From sequence record OL615012: a stretch of 64,000 bases of DNA; one strand, given 5' to 3'. Positions 11,658-59,709 of the stretch are shown one piece after another; positions within the stretch are counted from its first letter, which is position 1, and each line of letters begins with the position of its first letter. Both the position numbers and the translations under genes were made by a program. The notes below the pieces were generated by a model that was not told the origin of the DNA, searched no databases, and was given only the letters and a program-made list of their open reading frames with translations. Origin of the DNA: Shigella phage vB_SboM_Phaginator.

Positions 11658-12260
11658 TTATAGATTAAATCCTTCAAAGTCAAGAGTATAGATAGTGTAT
11701 GTTGAATACTTTTTATATTCATATCTATCTGCAATTCTAAATACACTTCCAGCTGGTATCATTACTTCTTGTTCATCTGAAACTAATTCCATATTACGAT
11801 AACGATGGCTATCCGGAAACTTAAAGTTTGGATTGTATTCTTTACAGCGTAGAGCTTTTATAGCATACTCCTGGAAATTGAATACCATAGGAGCTTTGAA
11901 TTCAAAAATAACCTGTGTGTTATACTCTAAACCGGAAGCAAAATGTAGAGCTATATTTTTATCATATGAAGCTGATACGACTTTATCAAATGTAATAATA
12001 TCAATTCCTTGATTTAACTCCTGCTTAGTCTCAACTGGAACACCTCTCCAAAGAGGTTTATCGTTTGGAACCAAACGAGATTTGATTATTTCATTTAACC
12101 AAGTATGGTCATCTGGCTTATTAGTAATACAATGAATTAAAAGTTCAATTTCAGATAAATTAAACCCTTCAGAAAGCAATTCTTCACGAATAGAAGCACG
12201 CACCGATGCATCCATTGATTTTATTTTAAAATCTTTTAGTTGCATTACTGAGTATTTCAT
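11658..12260 (-). CDS. modA: ADP-ribosyltransferase ModA
   Basis: 200-aa ORF, T4 ModA length; R-S-E triad context (PLWRG, SAS, EQEVMIP). Confidence 0.85.
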   Translation of the reverse strand: MKYSVMQLKDFKIKSMDASVRASIREELLSEGFNLSEIELLIHCITNKPDDHTWLNEIIKSRLVPNDKPLWRGVPVETKQELNQGIDIITFDKVVSASYDKNIALHFASGLEYNTQVIFEFKAPMVFNFQEYAIKALRCKEYNPNFKFPDSHRYRNMELVSDEQEVMIPAGSVFRIADRYEYKKYSTYTIYTLDFEGFNL

Positions 12261-12880
12261 TCAACTACCTCAATATCATACACTTTAAATGTTCCAAACG
12301 AATCGTGTAATTTTTCTTTTGAAATAGAAGTTATTTTATACTTTCCAATTGGAATCATCCATTCTTGTTCACGCACAATCATCATTAAGTTATCAGTACG
12401 CTCTGAATCTAGCCCATCAGTATCTTCATACGTGTACTTAAACTCAGTATTAGGAGAAGAAAGTATAATATCGCTGATATGGTCAGAATAATTAAAAGCT
12501 TTATCAGTTTTTAAACGAAGTATTGTTTCAGTGAAATATTCAGCATAAGAAAAAGAACACGCTGTATGCAAACTAGTAGTAAATGAATCTACCCTGTTCG
12601 TTGAAAACACTTCTCCAACCTGTAAATCTTTAATAAGTTCTTTTGTCGATTTTGATATACCGCGATATAACTGATAAGGTGATTTAGTTAAATGCTTTTT
12701 AACGATTTTATTCAACTGCCGATGAAGAGCTTCATTCTTTTTAGCTTCCATACATTGCCAAAGAATTGACTGCTCAAAGTCAGTAAATTTTTCACAGACC
12801 TTTTTATACATATCATATTGAAAATCAACGCTTTCAGCTTTTATAGATAACTGTTCAACATCTGCAAGATTAATAATCAT
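12257..12880 (-). CDS. modB: ADP-ribosyltransferase ModB
   Basis: 207-aa ORF, T4 ModB length, adjacent to modA; YRGIS and EQEWMIP motifs. Confidence 0.85.
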   Translation of the reverse strand: MIINLADVEQLSIKAESVDFQYDMYKKVCEKFTDFEQSILWQCMEAKKNEALHRQLNKIVKKHLTKSPYQLYRGISKSTKELIKDLQVGEVFSTNRVDSFTTSLHTACSFSYAEYFTETILRLKTDKAFNYSDHISDIILSSPNTEFKYTYEDTDGLDSERTDNLMMIVREQEWMIPIGKYKITSISKEKLHDSFGTFKVYDIEVVE

Positions 12881-12906
12881 GATAGCCTCCGTATATTTCA
12901 GAAGCT

Positions 12907-12936
12907 ATCATATCATCGTTAGGAAGGAAAGTAAAC
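12907..12936 (-). promoter_or_regulatory. T4-type early promoter
   Basis: Minus strand GTTTAC-18 nt-TATGAT, then GGAGG and the modB ATG. Confidence 0.6.
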
Positions 12937-12947
12937 AACTTTTTGAA

Positions 12948-13130
12948 TTATTTTGCCCAGGGAGCCCAAGGCGGAGGGTCAAGATGGTATGAAGCTAGTT
13001 CTTCTAGAAGAGCATCTGGGGCTTCAATTCCATAATTTTGTAATACTATACGGTACTCTTTCTTATAATCACTAGAATCATTCTGGATATTCGTAGAATG
13101 ATTATCTTCTAACATCTCAAATAAATCCAT
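12948..13130 (-). CDS. hypothetical protein (60 aa)
   Basis: ORF-track ORF in the modB-soc interval. Confidence 0.5.
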   Translation of the reverse strand: MDLFEMLEDNHSTNIQNDSSDYKKEYRIVLQNYGIEAPDALLEELASYHLDPPPWAPWAK

Positions 13131-18081: not shown

Positions 18082-18714
18082 TTAACCTTTATTCATAAAA
18101 GCATTAAAAATTTGATCGTCAATAGAAACTTTTACTTTAGGCTGTTCTTCAAACGGTAATTCATATCCACATATTACAATTTTGTGATCGATACCAAAAT
18201 ACACAGAAGCAATATTATTAATATTATTTTCAGTGAAATCTAAATCAACATCAATATCTTTTTGACTAACGCTCAAAGGATAATTAATACGAATAATTCG
18301 ATTATCTTTAACAAAGATTCCACCGACATACTCTGTGCTGCGTTTAAAGTTTACACGTTTCCTAAATGAAAAATATTCAGGTTCTTTATGGGCTCGACTC
18401 ATAGGGCTTAAAGTGTATTCCGAATATGAAATATCAAATCCTACACCTTCAATATGAGCCAAAGTGTCATGATTAAACCAATTATAATCGTATGCCAAAT
18501 CCATTAAATTGTAATATGTGAAAGGCACCGGATTAACATCATATGTTGTACCTTTAAAATCTGCCCAGGCAACGATTTCGTTATCTTTAACAATTACAAA
18601 AATTGTGCCAATAAGATATCCACGGTTATTTTCATCAGGCGTTATATTATAACATTGTGCATCAGGAAATTTACCGTATTTAAACGGTGGATTTTTGTGC
18701 ATATAATAAATCAT
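18082..18714 (-). CDS. hypothetical protein (210 aa)
   Basis: C-terminus IDDQIFNAFMNKG; T4 61.2-like position. Confidence 0.6.
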   Translation of the reverse strand: MIYYMHKNPPFKYGKFPDAQCYNITPDENNRGYLIGTIFVIVKDNEIVAWADFKGTTYDVNPVPFTYYNLMDLAYDYNWFNHDTLAHIEGVGFDISYSEYTLSPMSRAHKEPEYFSFRKRVNFKRSTEYVGGIFVKDNRIIRINYPLSVSQKDIDVDLDFTENNINNIASVYFGIDHKIVICGYELPFEEQPKVKVSIDDQIFNAFMNKG

Positions 18715-55955: not shown

Positions 55956-56168
55956 TCATTTTTGTCCTGTATTTACTTTATGCCGATGCACGGCCTTAAC
56001 TTTATCAAGGTATTTTTCAAAATTTCGCAATCTAGTATAGTCTGCCGGAGATTGGTTGAGTGATACTTCTCGACGCAAAGCTGAAATGATATTTCCAACT
56101 TCCCTACGAATTTCATCTAATTGAAGCACAGTAAGATTGCGAAGTTGCTTTTCAGTTAATTGTAGCAT
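55956..56168 (-). CDS. hypothetical protein (70 aa), T4 rI.1 position
   Basis: ORF between tk and rI. Confidence 0.55.
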
Positions 56169-56210
56169 ATATACCCCTTTAGTTAGATAAACCTATTTAT
56201 AACTTTTGCA

Positions 56211-56792
56211 CTAACCGAGCTTTTTAGTTAATTCATTCCAATGTTTTCTGCACAAAGAAACATAAATTTCATCACCAATACAGATTTGATTACCTTCTTT
56301 AACTGGTGTTCCATCTTCCATTAATCGAGCTGTCATAATCGCTTTTTTGCCGCAATGACAGACTGCTTTCAGTTCAATAAGTTTATCTGCAATCGCTAAA
56401 AGTTCTTTAGAACCTTCAAACAATTTTCCAGCGAAATCAGTCCTTAATCCATAAGCCATAACAGGAACATTATATGTATCAACAATTCGGCTCAATTGAT
56501 GCACTTGTTCAGTTTTTAAAAACTGAGCTTCATCTACAAATACGCAATGAATATCTTTTTGTGCTTCGGCCCATTTATAGAATTCGAAAATGTCCATATC
56601 ATCTGTAATAATATTCGCTTCCTGCTTAATTCCAATGCGAGAAACGACTTCACAGACAGAATCGCGAGTATCAATAGCAGGCTTAAGAACTAATACACCC
56701 ATTCCACGTTCTTTATAATTATGTGCAGCAGTCAAAAGAGAAGCAGATTTTCCAGCATTCATTGCTGCATAAGTAAAAATTAAACTCGCCAT
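56211..56792 (-). CDS. tk: thymidine kinase
   Basis: 193-aa ORF, T4 Tk length; P-loop AAMNAGKS and Cys cluster CHCGKK...C. Confidence 0.95.
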   Translation of the reverse strand: MASLIFTYAAMNAGKSASLLTAAHNYKERGMGVLVLKPAIDTRDSVCEVVSRIGIKQEANIITDDMDIFEFYKWAEAQKDIHCVFVDEAQFLKTEQVHQLSRIVDTYNVPVMAYGLRTDFAGKLFEGSKELLAIADKLIELKAVCHCGKKAIMTARLMEDGTPVKEGNQICIGDEIYVSLCRKHWNELTKKLG

Positions 56793-56801
56793 ATCACCTT
56801 C

Positions 56802-56987
56802 TTAAAGCGTATTCACATAAGCTATTAATTCGTTTTCTTTCTTATCAAACCGATCAGCAAATTCTTCCTGCTGTTCGGGAGATAGCGGGCCATATTCATC
56901 ATAAAAGGTGTTTGCTTCTGTATGCTCATCTAGAAGTTCATGGATAAGCTCAAACAATTTATCTTTTTGTTCTTTACTCAGACTCAT
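56802..56987 (-). CDS. small acidic protein (61 aa)
   Basis: ORF-track ORF upstream of tk. Confidence 0.55.
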   Translation of the reverse strand: MSLSKEQKDKLFELIHELLDEHTEANTFYDEYGPLSPEQQEEFADRFDKKENELIAYVNTL

Positions 56988-57153
56988 ATATTAATTTCCA
57001 GGAGTTTTAAAATAATTCGCTTTTGCTTAAATATTTCCATAGTTAAATGACCAGTATCTTTTTGACCGATTCCAATGGCAAAACCTTTATTAACAGCGAG
57101 TTCAATTAAATTATCAAGCTCACGTAACACTTCGTATTGTAACTCAAAACTAT

Positions 57154-57381
57154 TCATTTTGGTTTACCTTCTTTAACGAAATCAGGATAAGGATAAAATC
57201 CCGAATAAAATCCTTCACCTTTATGATTGATGCATCCTTTATTAGAACAATAGCACCAATAATCGAAATCACAAGCCATTTCATCATTACATAAAGCAAA
57301 AACAACAGGCCATTTACACTTTTCGCAATGGGCATTTTTAAGAATACTAGTTTGGCTCATAACCATGTAACCTTTAAGCAA
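57154..57381 (-). CDS. small Cys-rich protein (75 aa)
   Basis: Eight Cys including CEKCKW and CYCSNKGC. Confidence 0.5.
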   Translation of the reverse strand: MLKGYMVMSQTSILKNAHCEKCKWPVVFALCNDEMACDFDYWCYCSNKGCINHKGEGFYSGFYPYPDFVKEGKPK

Positions 57382-57569
57382 TATTCTTCTACATGTTGTT
57401 TACGACCTTTCTTATCAATAAAGGTATATTCAACGAATGTTCCAATGTAGTCTTTATCTACATCATGTGGACTATTAATTGGACATTTAGTACGGCAAAT
57501 GCGTTCCCATTGACGAATAATTTCCACTTTGTTTTTAGGATCAAACGGATGTGGGTAATGTACTTTCAT
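57357..57569 (-). CDS. hypothetical protein (70 aa)
   Basis: ORF-track ORF. Confidence 0.5.
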   Translation of the reverse strand: MKVHYPHPFDPKNKVEIIRQWERICRTKCPINSPHDVDKDYIGTFVEYTFIDKKGRKQHVEEYCLKVTWL

Positions 57570-58020
57570 AATCCACCACTATTAAATCAATATCAGGAGT
57601 AAACATGTCGATTAATTTAGAAACTTTATCCCAATCGCCGCCAGCAATACCACAACCTATGCGTGGAATGTAAATTATCGGTTTAAACAAAAGGGTTTCT
57701 GCCTGTAGATTTAATTCTATCATGCAGTTTACTAAAGCACCATAATCAAGATTAGGACCTGGTTCGTATTGCGTATACAAGTTATAACATATGCCAAAAC
57801 CATTAGGTTTATGTTTAAAAACAATAGACATATCACCGAGTTTTTCACGCGAACCATATTCAGTTGTGGTCTTATCTATTTCTAAAATTTTGGGATAGGC
57901 TCTTGCTAATTGACCAGCTACACCACTGCCCATTGTATGAAAACAATTGCACCCGTGCGCAATAATATTACCTTGAAGAAATAGGGCGACAATATCGCCC
58001 TTGATATATTTTACAATCAT
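57541..58020 (-). CDS. macro-domain protein (predicted ADP-ribose binding/hydrolase)
   Basis: 159-aa ORF; IKGDI...GNIIAHGCNCFHTMGSGVAGQLA and IGCGIAGGDW resemble macro-domain signatures. Confidence 0.6.
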   Translation of the reverse strand: MIVKYIKGDIVALFLQGNIIAHGCNCFHTMGSGVAGQLARAYPKILEIDKTTTEYGSREKLGDMSIVFKHKPNGFGICYNLYTQYEPGPNLDYGALVNCMIELNLQAETLLFKPIIYIPRIGCGIAGGDWDKVSKLIDMFTPDIDLIVVDYESTLPTSV

Positions 58021-58364
58021 CTAGTACTCAATCCTCGATTATAAGAATCTACCAAACGGTCAACCATTGAATGACAAGCGGCTTTATCTTTCTCCTCCGC
58101 AACTGAACATTCTAAGGTATTCCACTTTTTAGCATATCGTTTTAATAATGTATCGTTTTTGTATCTGCTTGATTTATCTCTTTCTCCGTCTTTATATGCA
58201 TATATTAATTTCTGTGCAAATTCAGCTTGGCATGCTTTATTTTTCCCACAATAATCTGCCGCAGTGCGGTTTACATATTCTCTAATTTCAGTATATGATG
58301 TATCTGCTGACGCAGAAGCAGAAAATGAAATTAATCCTATACATAAAACCAAAATTTTAGTCAT
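58017..58364 (-). CDS. secreted protein (115 aa)
   Basis: Signal peptide MTKILVLCIGLISFSASASA; four Cys. Confidence 0.6.
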   Translation of the reverse strand: MTKILVLCIGLISFSASASADTSYTEIREYVNRTAADYCGKNKACQAEFAQKLIYAYKDGERDKSSRYKNDTLLKRYAKKWNTLECSVAEEKDKAACHSMVDRLVDSYNRGLSTR

Positions 58365-58902
58365 TTACTATTTCCAAAAGTTTATTATTTTTAAGGTAAT
58401 TAGCCTTTTCTAGGACTTCAGAAGCATATTTAGAACCAGCTTTAACATTCCATCCCGAATTATAAGAGGATATTGCTTTTCTTATATCGCCCTTATGTAT
58501 ATTTAACCAATAAGAAAGTTCAATGTACGCCCAGGAAGCTGAATTGGATCGTTTATTCAACATTCTTTTTATTTCAGCATCGGTCATATTATAACCAAGT
58601 TCCTTAACTCTTGCTCGCATAGTAGGCAAATAATTTTGGAACATTCCGTAGGCGTGATGCTTTGGTTTAGATTTTAAATTAACTCCGCCAGAGCTTTCTT
58701 GCCATAAAATAGCAGCCATTATATGACCTAATCCGCTCTTGTGGATATTTTTGTGTGTTTTATATTTTCCATCCTTAGAAAATTGTTCCCCGAATTGATA
58801 CGCGTAACGCATGTTATCGAGTTGGACATTACTGAAAGTATGCTCGGAGCTATGTGCCATCATTGAAATGGCCAATAGACCAGCGAGTAGTGCTTTTCTC
58901 AT
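58357..58902 (-). CDS. secreted lytic transglycosylase-like protein (SLT domain)
   Basis: Signal peptide MRKALLAGLLAISMMA; motifs WQESSGG, YGMFQ, SSYNSGW fit the SLT E-S/GLMQ/AYNxG pattern. Confidence 0.6.
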   Translation of the reverse strand: MRKALLAGLLAISMMAHSSEHTFSNVQLDNMRYAYQFGEQFSKDGKYKTHKNIHKSGLGHIMAAILWQESSGGVNLKSKPKHHAYGMFQNYLPTMRARVKELGYNMTDAEIKRMLNKRSNSASWAYIELSYWLNIHKGDIRKAISSYNSGWNVKAGSKYASEVLEKANYLKNNKLLEIVND

Positions 58903-58909
58903 GCTTACC

Positions 58910-59371
58910 TCATTGAGTTTTAATTACTGCTTTAGAAGCCTTTCCTGGTAAACGACGACTGTTGATAATTGCCATCCTACATTGAAGTGACGGGTCTTTG
59001 AACTTCTCATTAGGCTTACAAACTGTAAATCCAAGCCAAAGATTTCCATCTGTGATTTCTAAACGTCCAGGACGATATTCAACCCCATCAATAAAATCCT
59101 CGTCAATGTCAGGACGCGGAGGCATACTCAGGAATTCATTAACTTCTAAAACATGGTCTTTTATTTTATGGAATAATTCAAAAACATATGTCTCATCAAT
59201 CTCCCGTTGAATTGCACGATCAAGAAGATGTTGAGAATATTTTAGATGAAACGATGAGACCCCTGCTGCTTTTGATGCCTCACGAATCTCATTGTTAATT
59301 TGACGAAACTCCGACTCAAAGTGACGACGAAGCTTATTTCGACGGATAAAAACTTCTGTGTTGATAGTCAT
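58910..59371 (-). CDS. regB: RegB endoribonuclease
   Basis: 153-aa ORF MTINTEVFIRRNKLRRHFE...; T4 RegB length and sequence as recalled. Confidence 0.9.
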   Translation of the reverse strand: MTINTEVFIRRNKLRRHFESEFRQINNEIREASKAAGVSSFHLKYSQHLLDRAIQREIDETYVFELFHKIKDHVLEVNEFLSMPPRPDIDEDFIDGVEYRPGRLEITDGNLWLGFTVCKPNEKFKDPSLQCRMAIINSRRLPGKASKAVIKTQ

Positions 59372-59399
59372 GTTATTCTCCTCTTAACTGATAGAAAAA

Positions 59400-59429
59400 T
59401 TATACCACAGTCAAGAGGAAAAGTAAACA
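59400..59429 (-). promoter_or_regulatory. T4-type early promoter
   Basis: Minus strand GTTTAC-18 nt-TGGTATAAT, then GAGGAG and the regB ATG. Confidence 0.7.
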
Positions 59430-59430
59430 A

Positions 59431-59709
59431 TTATTCTTTAAATCTAATCAATTTATTCATAGACTTTGAAACTTCTGCACGAACCTCATGTAGGTTTTTA
59501 AGCTGTTCAAGACGCTGCTCATAGTAAGCAATTTCATCTTCTTCGAGACAGTCCTGCGAATCTTCTTTAAGATAACGTGCATAGTCCTGGAAAGCTTTAC
59601 GGACTACTTCCTGGAAGTCATCAAGACTTTGAATTTTCTTAGGAGCAACAGATACACGACGAGGGGCAGTATAATACTCATAACCAAACCCTGCGCTTAA
59701 TTGAGCCAT
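59431..59709 (-). CDS. hypothetical protein (~92 aa)
   Basis: ORF-track ORF trimmed to [13 protein letters not shown]..., abutting the upstream ORF's stop. Confidence 0.5.

Follow-up and report, generated by a model that had tools for sequence, protein, structure and literature searches.

The tk.4 (adfM) orthologue of a T4-like Shigella phage encodes a Gln-type macrodomain that probably reverses DarT2-dependent DNA ADP-ribosylation

The window analysed here is a stretch of 64,000 nucleotides from Shigella phage vB_SboM_Phaginator (sequence record OL615012). Many T4-like phages match its segment from 56000 to 59500 with 98-99% identity, among them three BASEL phages at about 98%, and the window is that of a T4-like phage, Tequatrovirus. 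The genes in this segment follow the order of the T4 reference annotation, i.e. rI.-1, rI, rI.1, tk, small ORFs, tk.3, tk.4, vs, vs.1 and regB, and the ORF under study takes the place of tk.4, with tk.3 and vs on either side (Table 1). It runs from an ATG to a stop codon, which is included in the end coordinates, and encodes a single macrodomain of 159 aa; the plus-strand frame over the same interval is riddled with stop codons. The protein and T4 Tk.4 share 57% identity across 155 aa (E=2e-69), and the ORF is an orthologue of T4 tk.4 (adfM). A tblastn search found Tk.4 homologues in 2,761 phage records.

Table 1. Coordinates of the features discussed in the text
Feature	Position in window	Strand	Basis
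tk.4/adfM orthologue	57541..58020	-	ORF, Pfam Macro, PHROG 335, identity to T4 Tk.4, AF2, Foldseek
Overlap of vs stop and tk.4 start, ATGA	58017..58020	-	ORF coordinates and sequence
Overlap of tk.4 3' end and tk.3 start, 29 nt	57541..57569	-	ORF coordinates
GC-rich hairpin AGGGCGATATTGTCGCCCT, then T-rich tract	57983..58001	-	terminator-like scan; within tk.4 codons 7-13
Divergent allele island	57569..57982	-	30-87% nt identity to T4, flanks 93-100%; sliding identity profile
H22-G23-C24-N25 codons	57946..57957	-	conservation in 92 homologues and alignment
Q84 codon, position of the catalytic Lys	57769..57771	-	invariant in 92 homologues; HMM alignment and multiple alignment
P119-W130 glycine-rich loop PRIGCGIAGGDW	57631..57666	-	conservation, HMM alignment, multiple alignment
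ModA	11658-12260	-	98% identical to T4
ModB	12257-12880	-	98% identical to T4

Genes are tightly packed around tk.4 in the typical style of a phage operon. At its 5' end, the overlap of the tk.4 start with the vs stop suggests that the two genes are translationally coupled in one transcription unit. At its 3' end, the overlap with tk.3 is longer than the 4 nt found in T4, and tk.3 itself encodes 70 aa that are 93% identical to T4 Tk.3. The number of promoter-like sites between 56000 and 61500 was not in excess of expectation (18 found versus 21.2 expected from shuffled sequences). The hairpin near the start of tk.4 has a fold energy of about -13 kcal/mol and is identical in T4. In some GenBank records a 'terminator' feature is listed beneath the match to the tk.4 region.

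The macro-domain nature of tk.4 has long been established, given that existing records already carry it in their annotations. T4 Tk.4 stands in GenBank as 'phosphatase; contains A1pp phosphatase motif', 'phosphatase' is also the name given to PHROG 335, and the homologue appears in other records as 'macro domain protein', 'Appr-1-p processing protein', 'Poa1p-like' or 'RNase III inhibitor'. The profile and fold data establish that the macro-domain resemblance of the window Tk.4 is not a matter of chance: (i) Pfam Macro (PF01661) matches with E=2.6e-8 and 34.2 bits, compared with a curated gathering cut-off of 22, in an alignment that spans profile positions 2-117 of 118, (ii) PHROG 335 matches with E=4e-71, and (iii) an AlphaFold2 (AF2) model built from an alignment of 92 homologues (pLDDT 93.9, pTM 0.89) and the Foldseek comparison both give the three-layer alpha/beta macro fold. 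In the Foldseek search against the PDB, the leading matches, with probability 1.0, are TARG1, Poa1p, BT1257 and DarG from Thermus aquaticus and Mycobacterium tuberculosis, and the top 50 contain nothing other than macrodomains and designed proteins. These designed proteins derive from TTHA0132 (PDB 2DX6), a macrodomain used as scaffold.

Before any of these searches, a sequence-only reading had pointed to a 159-aa ORF at this place with the motifs IKGDI, NIIAHGCNCFHTMGSGVAGQLA and IGCGIAGGDW and had likened them to macro-domain signatures. ORF and motifs were given exactly, all three motifs being present in the tk.4 translation, and the only omission was that the gene lies on the minus strand. 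The PF01661 match above cut-off, PHROG 335 and the AF2 fold bear out the signatures, and the wider structural call, a macro domain and probable ADP-ribose hydrolase, holds up in profile, fold and conserved residues. That reading would have been abandoned had structure prediction or profile searches returned no macro fold; the fold was found by both.

Within the macrodomains, profile and fold both favor TARG1, DarG, SCO6735, BT1257 and Poa1p over the MacroD, PARG and viral Mac1 types, and for this reason we place the window Tk.4 in the ALC1-like/TARG1-like class. Foldseek ranks 1-18 all fall within this class. Similarly, a profile built from the 92 homologues matches the PDB sequences of the class with E-values from 4e-20 to 2e-11, among them BT1257 (4e-20), SCO6735 (2e-16), TARG1 (7e-16), Poa1p (1e-14) and M. 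tuberculosis DarG (3e-13), compared with about 1e-3 (6e-4 or weaker) for the coronavirus and alphavirus macrodomains (nsP3/Mac1). Searches of NCBIfam and of PADLOC each put DarG first among their families. Membership of the DarG or the TARG1 family itself was considered and rejected on the basis of catalytic residues, domain architecture and score thresholds.

The putative active site was compared in an alignment of the window Tk.4, T4 Tk.4, BT1257, SCO6735, TARG1, two DarG macrodomains and PhiKZ gp104, together with HMM alignments. Three elements stand out: (i) H22, G23 and N25 are invariant among the 92 homologues and C24 is kept in at least 90% of them, (ii) Q84 stands where TARG1 (K84), DarG (K80) and PhiKZ AdfM (K78) have their catalytic Lys, a position at which Gln is likewise found in SCO6735 (Q85) and BT1257, and (iii) the glycine-rich loop, whose glycines are invariant in 92/92 homologues, is near-identical to PRIGCGLAGGTW of SCO6735 and probably binds the diphosphate of ADP-ribose. 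Each element has a counterpart with published data. N25 aligns with SCO6735 N27, DarG N22 and PhiKZ AdfM N23, and the equivalent residue is essential, SCO6735 N27S (PMC9411070) and PhiKZ N23A (PMC13309987) both being inactive. The Q85A mutant of SCO6735 has lost its activity towards DNA and protein alike, and Gly126 of this enzyme touches the diphosphate in molecular dynamics simulations (PMC9411070). In the same loop, A126 of the window protein stands at the position of the catalytic Asp125 of TARG1.

With Gln at the Lys position and a positioning Asn (Q84/N25, compared with Q85/N27 in SCO6735), the window Tk.4 is a macrodomain of the Gln type. For SCO6735 a Lys-independent mechanism has been proposed, in which a water positioned by the backbone performs the reaction while the Gln positions the distal ribose; this proposal is founded on mutagenesis and molecular dynamics, not on a transition-state structure (PMC9411070). 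SCO6735 and BT1257 both carry an insertion of 5-6 residues directly after the Gln, which the window Tk.4 lacks. This insertion may correspond to the extended mobile loop that has been credited for the high activity of SCO6735 on DNA, a loop that exceeds those of DarG and TARG1 by about 5 residues (PMC9411070).

What such a protein could do for a T4-like phage is indicated by genetic data on T4 itself. When a T4 mutant library was grown on a host expressing DarTG2 and analysed by transposon sequencing, tk.4 was the single significant hit; the fitness drop was specific to the presence of DarTG2, and a clean tk.4 knockout was sensitised to DarTG2 (bioRxiv 10.1101/2025.11.20.689424). The gene was accordingly renamed adfM (anti-DarT factor macrodomain), and removal of ADP-ribose from DNA was proposed as its activity; the support consists of genetics from a single unreviewed preprint and does not extend to enzymology (bioRxiv 10.1101/2025.11.20.689424). 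This result fills a gap left by earlier work, in which T4 lacking both AdfA (gp61.2) and AdfN (gp30.3) was still resistant to DarTG2, predicting a further factor, and in which 'these phages', apparently the T-even phages studied, were all DarTG2 resistant (PMC11257639). In DarTG2-sensitive T5, the portion scanned, i.e. the first 50 kb, gave no tk.4 homologue.

Biochemical data on related proteins point in the same direction. The macrodomain gp104 (AdfM) of the jumbo phage PhiKZ strips DarT2-installed ADP-ribose from ssDNA in vitro and shields PhiKZ from DarTG2 (PMC13309987). Reversal of thymidine-linked DNA ADP-ribosylation is described as an activity that unites DarG, TARG1 and SCO6735, the last of which rescues E. 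coli from DarT (PMC9411070). The class also acts on Glu/Asp-linked ADP-ribose in proteins (PMC9411070) and on uracil-linked ADP-ribose in RNA (PMC13036486), and by analogy with these other substrates, DNA may not be the sole substrate of the window Tk.4.

Given that the window ORF sits in the tk.4 slot and that T4 tk.4/adfM has a DarTG2 phenotype, removal of the DarT2 mark is the most likely function, and we suggest that the window Tk.4 is probably an orphan, antitoxin-like DNA ADP-ribosylglycohydrolase directed against DarT2. In this model, host DarTG2 releases the toxin DarT2, which places ADP-ribose on the N3 atom of thymidine in the phage's single-stranded DNA and in that way blocks replication. 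The free-standing macrodomain of 159 aa, made in the infected cell, would then grip the ADP-ribose moiety and cleave the base-ribose bond to restore normal DNA, thus taking the role of an orphan antitoxin. Gln84, held by Asn25, would position the distal ribose and water would probably do the chemistry, as in the Lys-independent type represented by SCO6735 and unlike the Lys-dependent chemistry of DarG and TARG1. The window allele would act like T4 Tk.4 and would use the Gln mechanism. Weighing against this model are the divergence of the window allele from the T4 protein on which the experiments were done, the two being just 57% identical, the absence of the Lys present in DarG and TARG1, and the lack of the insertion that follows the Gln in SCO6735 and BT1257.

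The legacy annotation leads to a different proposal, in which Tk.4 acts on small molecules, as an ADP-ribose-1''-phosphate phosphatase like Poa1p or as an O-acetyl-ADP-ribose deacetylase, and clears by-products of RNA repair or sirtuins or degrades ADP-ribose-derived molecules of NADase-type defences. Poa1p is a strong match by sequence and fold, the 'phosphatase' label is carried by GenBank (T4 Tk.4, A1pp motif) and by PHROG 335, and, according to a proposal in a comparative-genomics review, soluble ADP-ribose derivatives may be the preferred substrates of viral macro and NADAR domains (PMC9503650). Among the residues probed in Poa1p (H23, S30 and F152), H23 aligns with H22 and S30 with T29 of the window protein, where the offset in numbering is deduced and the C-terminal part is weakly aligned. 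The label, however, reflects transfer of a domain name and not an assay, the sole recorded phenotype of T4 tk.4 concerns a DNA-modifying toxin (bioRxiv 10.1101/2025.11.20.689424), and the activity that unifies this macrodomain class is reversal of thymidine-ADP-ribose (PMC9411070). We therefore regard a small-molecule function as very improbable and favor DarT2-mark removal.

The sequence-only reading had linked the macrodomain to the phage ADP-ribosyltransferases ModA and ModB. Both are indeed encoded in the window, but they lie about 45 kb from tk.4 with no association by gene neighbourhood. The proposal that follows from this link is that Tk.4 erases or reads the ADP-ribose or RNAylation marks that Alt, ModA and ModB leave on host RNA polymerase, ribosomal protein S1 and other targets, making the modification reversible or sensed. 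The presence of ModA and ModB in the same genome and the general ability of macrodomains to bind ADP-ribose speak for it, as do the activity of SCO6735 and TARG1 on ADP-ribosylated proteins (PMC9411070) and the existence of at least one arginine-specific macrodomain family, MavL (cited in PMC13036486). The chemistry argues otherwise: the ModA and ModB marks are arginine N-glycosides, which in a study of RNAylation were removed by ARH1 (DraG-type) and resisted NH2OH and ARH3 (PMC10468400, PMC8120803), whereas TARG1-like enzymes cleave O-linked esters (PMC8120803) and thymidine adducts (PMC9411070). An arginine-specific, MavL-like macrodomain was considered and rejected for lack of similarity, no MavL-named entry being present among the PDB sequence matches with E<=1, the profile matches with E<=0.01 or the Foldseek top 50, where entries were judged by name.

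The phylogenetic distribution of the two protein families also argues against a writer-eraser pair. Matches to the macro family were found in 2,761 phage records and those to Mod-type transferases in 1,017, a comparison limited by the sensitivity of tblastn, and many phages have the macrodomain family and no detectable Mod-type enzyme. The records with Mod-type transferases come predominantly from enterobacterial T4-like phages; the ten commonest groups include Pseudomonas, Vibrio, Acinetobacter and Aeromonas phages for the macro family and not for ModB. Combining these data with the 45 kb that separate tk.4 from modA and modB and with the DarTG2-specific phenotype of T4 tk.4 (bioRxiv 10.1101/2025.11.20.689424), we consider a role for Tk.4 on Mod marks extremely improbable. 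The earlier proposal of an eraser or reader of these marks thus finds no support, given the arginine N-glycosidic nature of the marks versus the thymidine-ADP-ribose activity of the class, the distance between the genes and the many phages that carry the macro family without Mod. A second proposal, that host ADP-ribose signalling is the target, came close in that it looked to the host side, but the host component would be a defence toxin that ADP-ribosylates DNA and not a signalling molecule.

Returning to DarT2 as the probable target, the tk.4 locus has a further property, namely that it is an allele-replacement hotspot. The proteins encoded by rI.-1, rI, rI.1, vs, vs.1 and regB are 100% identical to those of T4, Tk is 99% and Tk.3 93% identical, and Tk.4 is 57% identical. 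In a sliding nucleotide comparison, identity to T4 is 100% through vs and the first 58 nt of tk.4 and then falls abruptly, with the hairpin AGGGCGATATTGTCGCCCT marking the 5' edge of the divergent island; past the island, identity is back at 93-100% in tk.3. Both alleles are common: at an amino acid identity of at least 90%, the window type is found in about 318 phage records and the T4/T2 type in about 224. The window-type gene is 87.6% identical at the nucleotide level to its homologue in JS98, which is presumably a member of another genus, and this likeness suggests that the window-type allele has been exchanged between genera. The diphosphate loop of the window allele is closer to the family consensus and to SCO6735 than is the T4 loop, and we therefore see no sign of decay.

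The replacement raises the question of whether the two alleles act on the same target. The window protein could be a counter-defence hydrolase with a target that differs from that of the T4 allele, i.e. another DarT2 lineage, uracil-ADP-ribose in RNA or another nucleic-acid ADP-ribosyltransferase toxin, and it may in part bind and block the toxin. A divergent island with sharp borders, set in surroundings that are about 100% identical to T4, with both alleles common, is what this proposal would lead one to expect. Moreover, uracil-ADP-ribose on ssRNA is reversed by SCO6735, TARG1 and DarG (PMC13036486), catalytically dead SCO6735 still inhibits DarT (PMC9411070), and the authors of the AdfN study propose a layering of counter-defences by which T-even phages meet varying DarTG systems (PMC11257639). 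However, the two alleles share every invariant active-site residue, mosaic exchange of alleles is common in accessory regions of T4-like phages without change of function, and neither allele is tied by data to a distinct toxin. We consider a different target for the window allele distinctly unlikely. A more general form of the idea, in which the two tk.4/adfM alleles, 57% identical and carried by T4-like genomes that hardly differ elsewhere, are specificity variants picked by different toxins (DarT2 lineages or base-ADP-ribosylating enzymes, including those acting on uracil in RNA), both using Gln and water and possibly also binding the toxin, seems to us somewhat less unlikely and is still doubtful. 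If true, the tk.4 locus would serve as an exchangeable counter-defence cassette and not as a fixed eraser with a housekeeping role.

The macro domain of tk.4 and its counter-defence role in T4 were already known and published, and no evidence ties the window Tk.4 to ModA or ModB. In total, tk.4 is one layer in the multi-part answer of T-even phages to DarTG, with AdfA and AdfN acting against DarTG1 and Tk.4/AdfM against DarTG2. To this scheme the present analysis adds that (i) AdfM of the T4 type would not be DarG-like in its chemistry, with Gln in place of the catalytic Lys as in SCO6735, (ii) AdfM of the T4 type and the PhiKZ protein of the same name are separate lineages, and (iii) the tk.4 locus is a hotspot of allele replacement, and a writer-eraser pair with ModA and ModB is unsupported. 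The residual interest lies in a possible difference in toxin specificity between the two tk.4 alleles and in the putative Lys-independent chemistry of T4-type AdfM.

The closest known system is T4 Tk.4 itself, with which the window protein shares its slot, its PHROG family (335), its approximate size (159 aa compared with 155 aa in T4) and the invariant residues H22, N25, Q84, G122 and G124. The two differ in the diphosphate loop, which reads IGAGIGKGNW in T4 and IGCGIAGGDW, the family consensus, in the window allele, and in four extra residues at the C-terminus of the latter. Among proteins of known structure, the best sequence relatives are SCO6735 of Streptomyces coelicolor (PDB 5E3B) and BT1257 of Bacteroides (PDB 2FG1/2AFC), both orphan Gln-type ALC1-like macrodomains, of which SCO6735 hydrolyses thymidine-ADP-ribose in DNA (PMC9411070). 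They share with the window Tk.4 the Gln at the Lys position, the conserved Asn, a near-identical PRIGCGxAGGxW loop and a stand-alone single domain; however, they are only 26-27% identical to it and are cellular, whereas the window Tk.4 is viral. In addition, SCO6735 has V25 where the window protein has G23, the proposed role of V25 being mediated by its backbone.

DarG of the DarTG2 system (PDB 5M31, 5M3E and 5M3I; NCBIfam NF048014) is of the same macrodomain class and fold and opposes the same toxin that we suggest for the window Tk.4. The differences are substantial: the window protein scores 28.2 bits on the DarG model compared with a cut-off of 250 bits, aligning with model positions 2-142 of 338, which is the macro part; the catalytic Lys80 is replaced by Gln84; and the C-terminal DarT-binding domain and an adjacent darT are lacking, the neighbours being vs and tk.3. 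Human TARG1/OARD1 (PDB 4J5R), which reverses thymidine-ADP-ribose (PMC9411070), is the top Foldseek match (E=1.5e-9, target-normalised TM-score 0.82) and has the PRIGCG loop in common with the window Tk.4, whereas its catalytic dyad Lys84/Asp125 corresponds to Gln84/Ala126. Finally, PhiKZ gp104 (AdfM), from a chimallivirus, counters DarTG2 and resembles the window Tk.4 in that it, too, is a single macrodomain encoded by a phage, is of similar size and has the conserved Asn. In contrast to the window protein, gp104 is of the DarG type, matching M. tuberculosis DarG at 9e-25 and the DarG model with 138 bits, and has retained the catalytic Lys78; the two phage proteins are barely similar to each other (BLASTP E=0.001 over 33 aa). 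Given this marginal similarity and the DarG-like, Lys-type nature of gp104, we suggest that the two phage AdfM proteins are separate recruitments from the same macrodomain class.

The ModA and ModB ADP-ribosyltransferases that the sequence-only reading had placed in the window were confirmed as orthologues of the T4 proteins (Table); their ORFs overlap by 4 nt, and tk.4 is 45 kb away. The orthologue of T4 gp61.2 (AdfA), reported as an anti-DarTG1 factor, shares far less of its sequence with the T4 protein, whereas the rest of the genome is ~98% identical, and in the alignment Asn occupies the position of T4 His165 (motif ENIINHIAS). With tk.4, this makes two diverged anti-DarT loci in the window.

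Features of the window and the PhiKZ locus used for comparison
Feature	Coordinates	Strand	Description
ModA orthologue	11658-12260	minus	200 aa; 98% identical to T4
ModB orthologue	12257-12880	minus	207 aa; 98% identical to T4
T4 gp61.2 (AdfA) orthologue	18082-18714	minus	73% identical to T4
tk.1-tk.2 segment	56802-57381	minus	divergent from T4; three small ORFs (61, 57 and 75 aa)
75-aa ORF	57154-57381	minus	PHROG 2306, function unknown
Hairpin in tk.4	57983-58001	minus	GC-rich, 8-bp stem, then T-rich tract; within codons 7-13 of tk.4
Vs.1	58357-58902	minus	181 aa; 100% identical to T4
PhiKZ gp104 (AdfM)	L002 (PhiKZ sequence) 12518-13003		compared with window 57541-58020

Within tk.4, identity to T4 falls from 100% to ~50% exactly at a hairpin that, together with its T-rich tract, is identical in T4. 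A "terminator" is among the features beneath the match in some GenBank records. One possibility is that the hairpin acts as an internal attenuator after vs; alternatively, it could mark a recombination boundary or be a chance feature.

In the tk.1-tk.2 segment, the first of the three ORFs shares 54% identity with T4 Tk.2; for the 57-aa and 75-aa ORFs, T4 has no clear counterpart. The 75-aa ORF is rich in cysteine (CEKC...C...C...C.C...C) and its product may bind zinc. For Vs.1, annotated in T4 as hypothetical only, the PHROG matches are weak (E ~1e-5 to 5e-4); they are to lytic tail proteins and endolysins, which would fit a lytic-transglycosylase-like domain.

Phage T5 is reported to be DarTG2-sensitive, and tblastn over its first 50 kb (L004, positions 1-50000) detected no Tk.4-like macrodomain. 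The comparison with PhiKZ gp104 shows that one name, AdfM, now covers two barely related phage macrodomains, a PhiKZ type and a T4 type, which differ in a Lys/Gln substitution of which we found no mention in the consulted text of either AdfM paper: the PhiKZ type resembles the antitoxin macrodomain DarG and has the catalytic Lys78, whereas the T4 type resembles SCO6735 of Streptomyces coelicolor and has Gln84.
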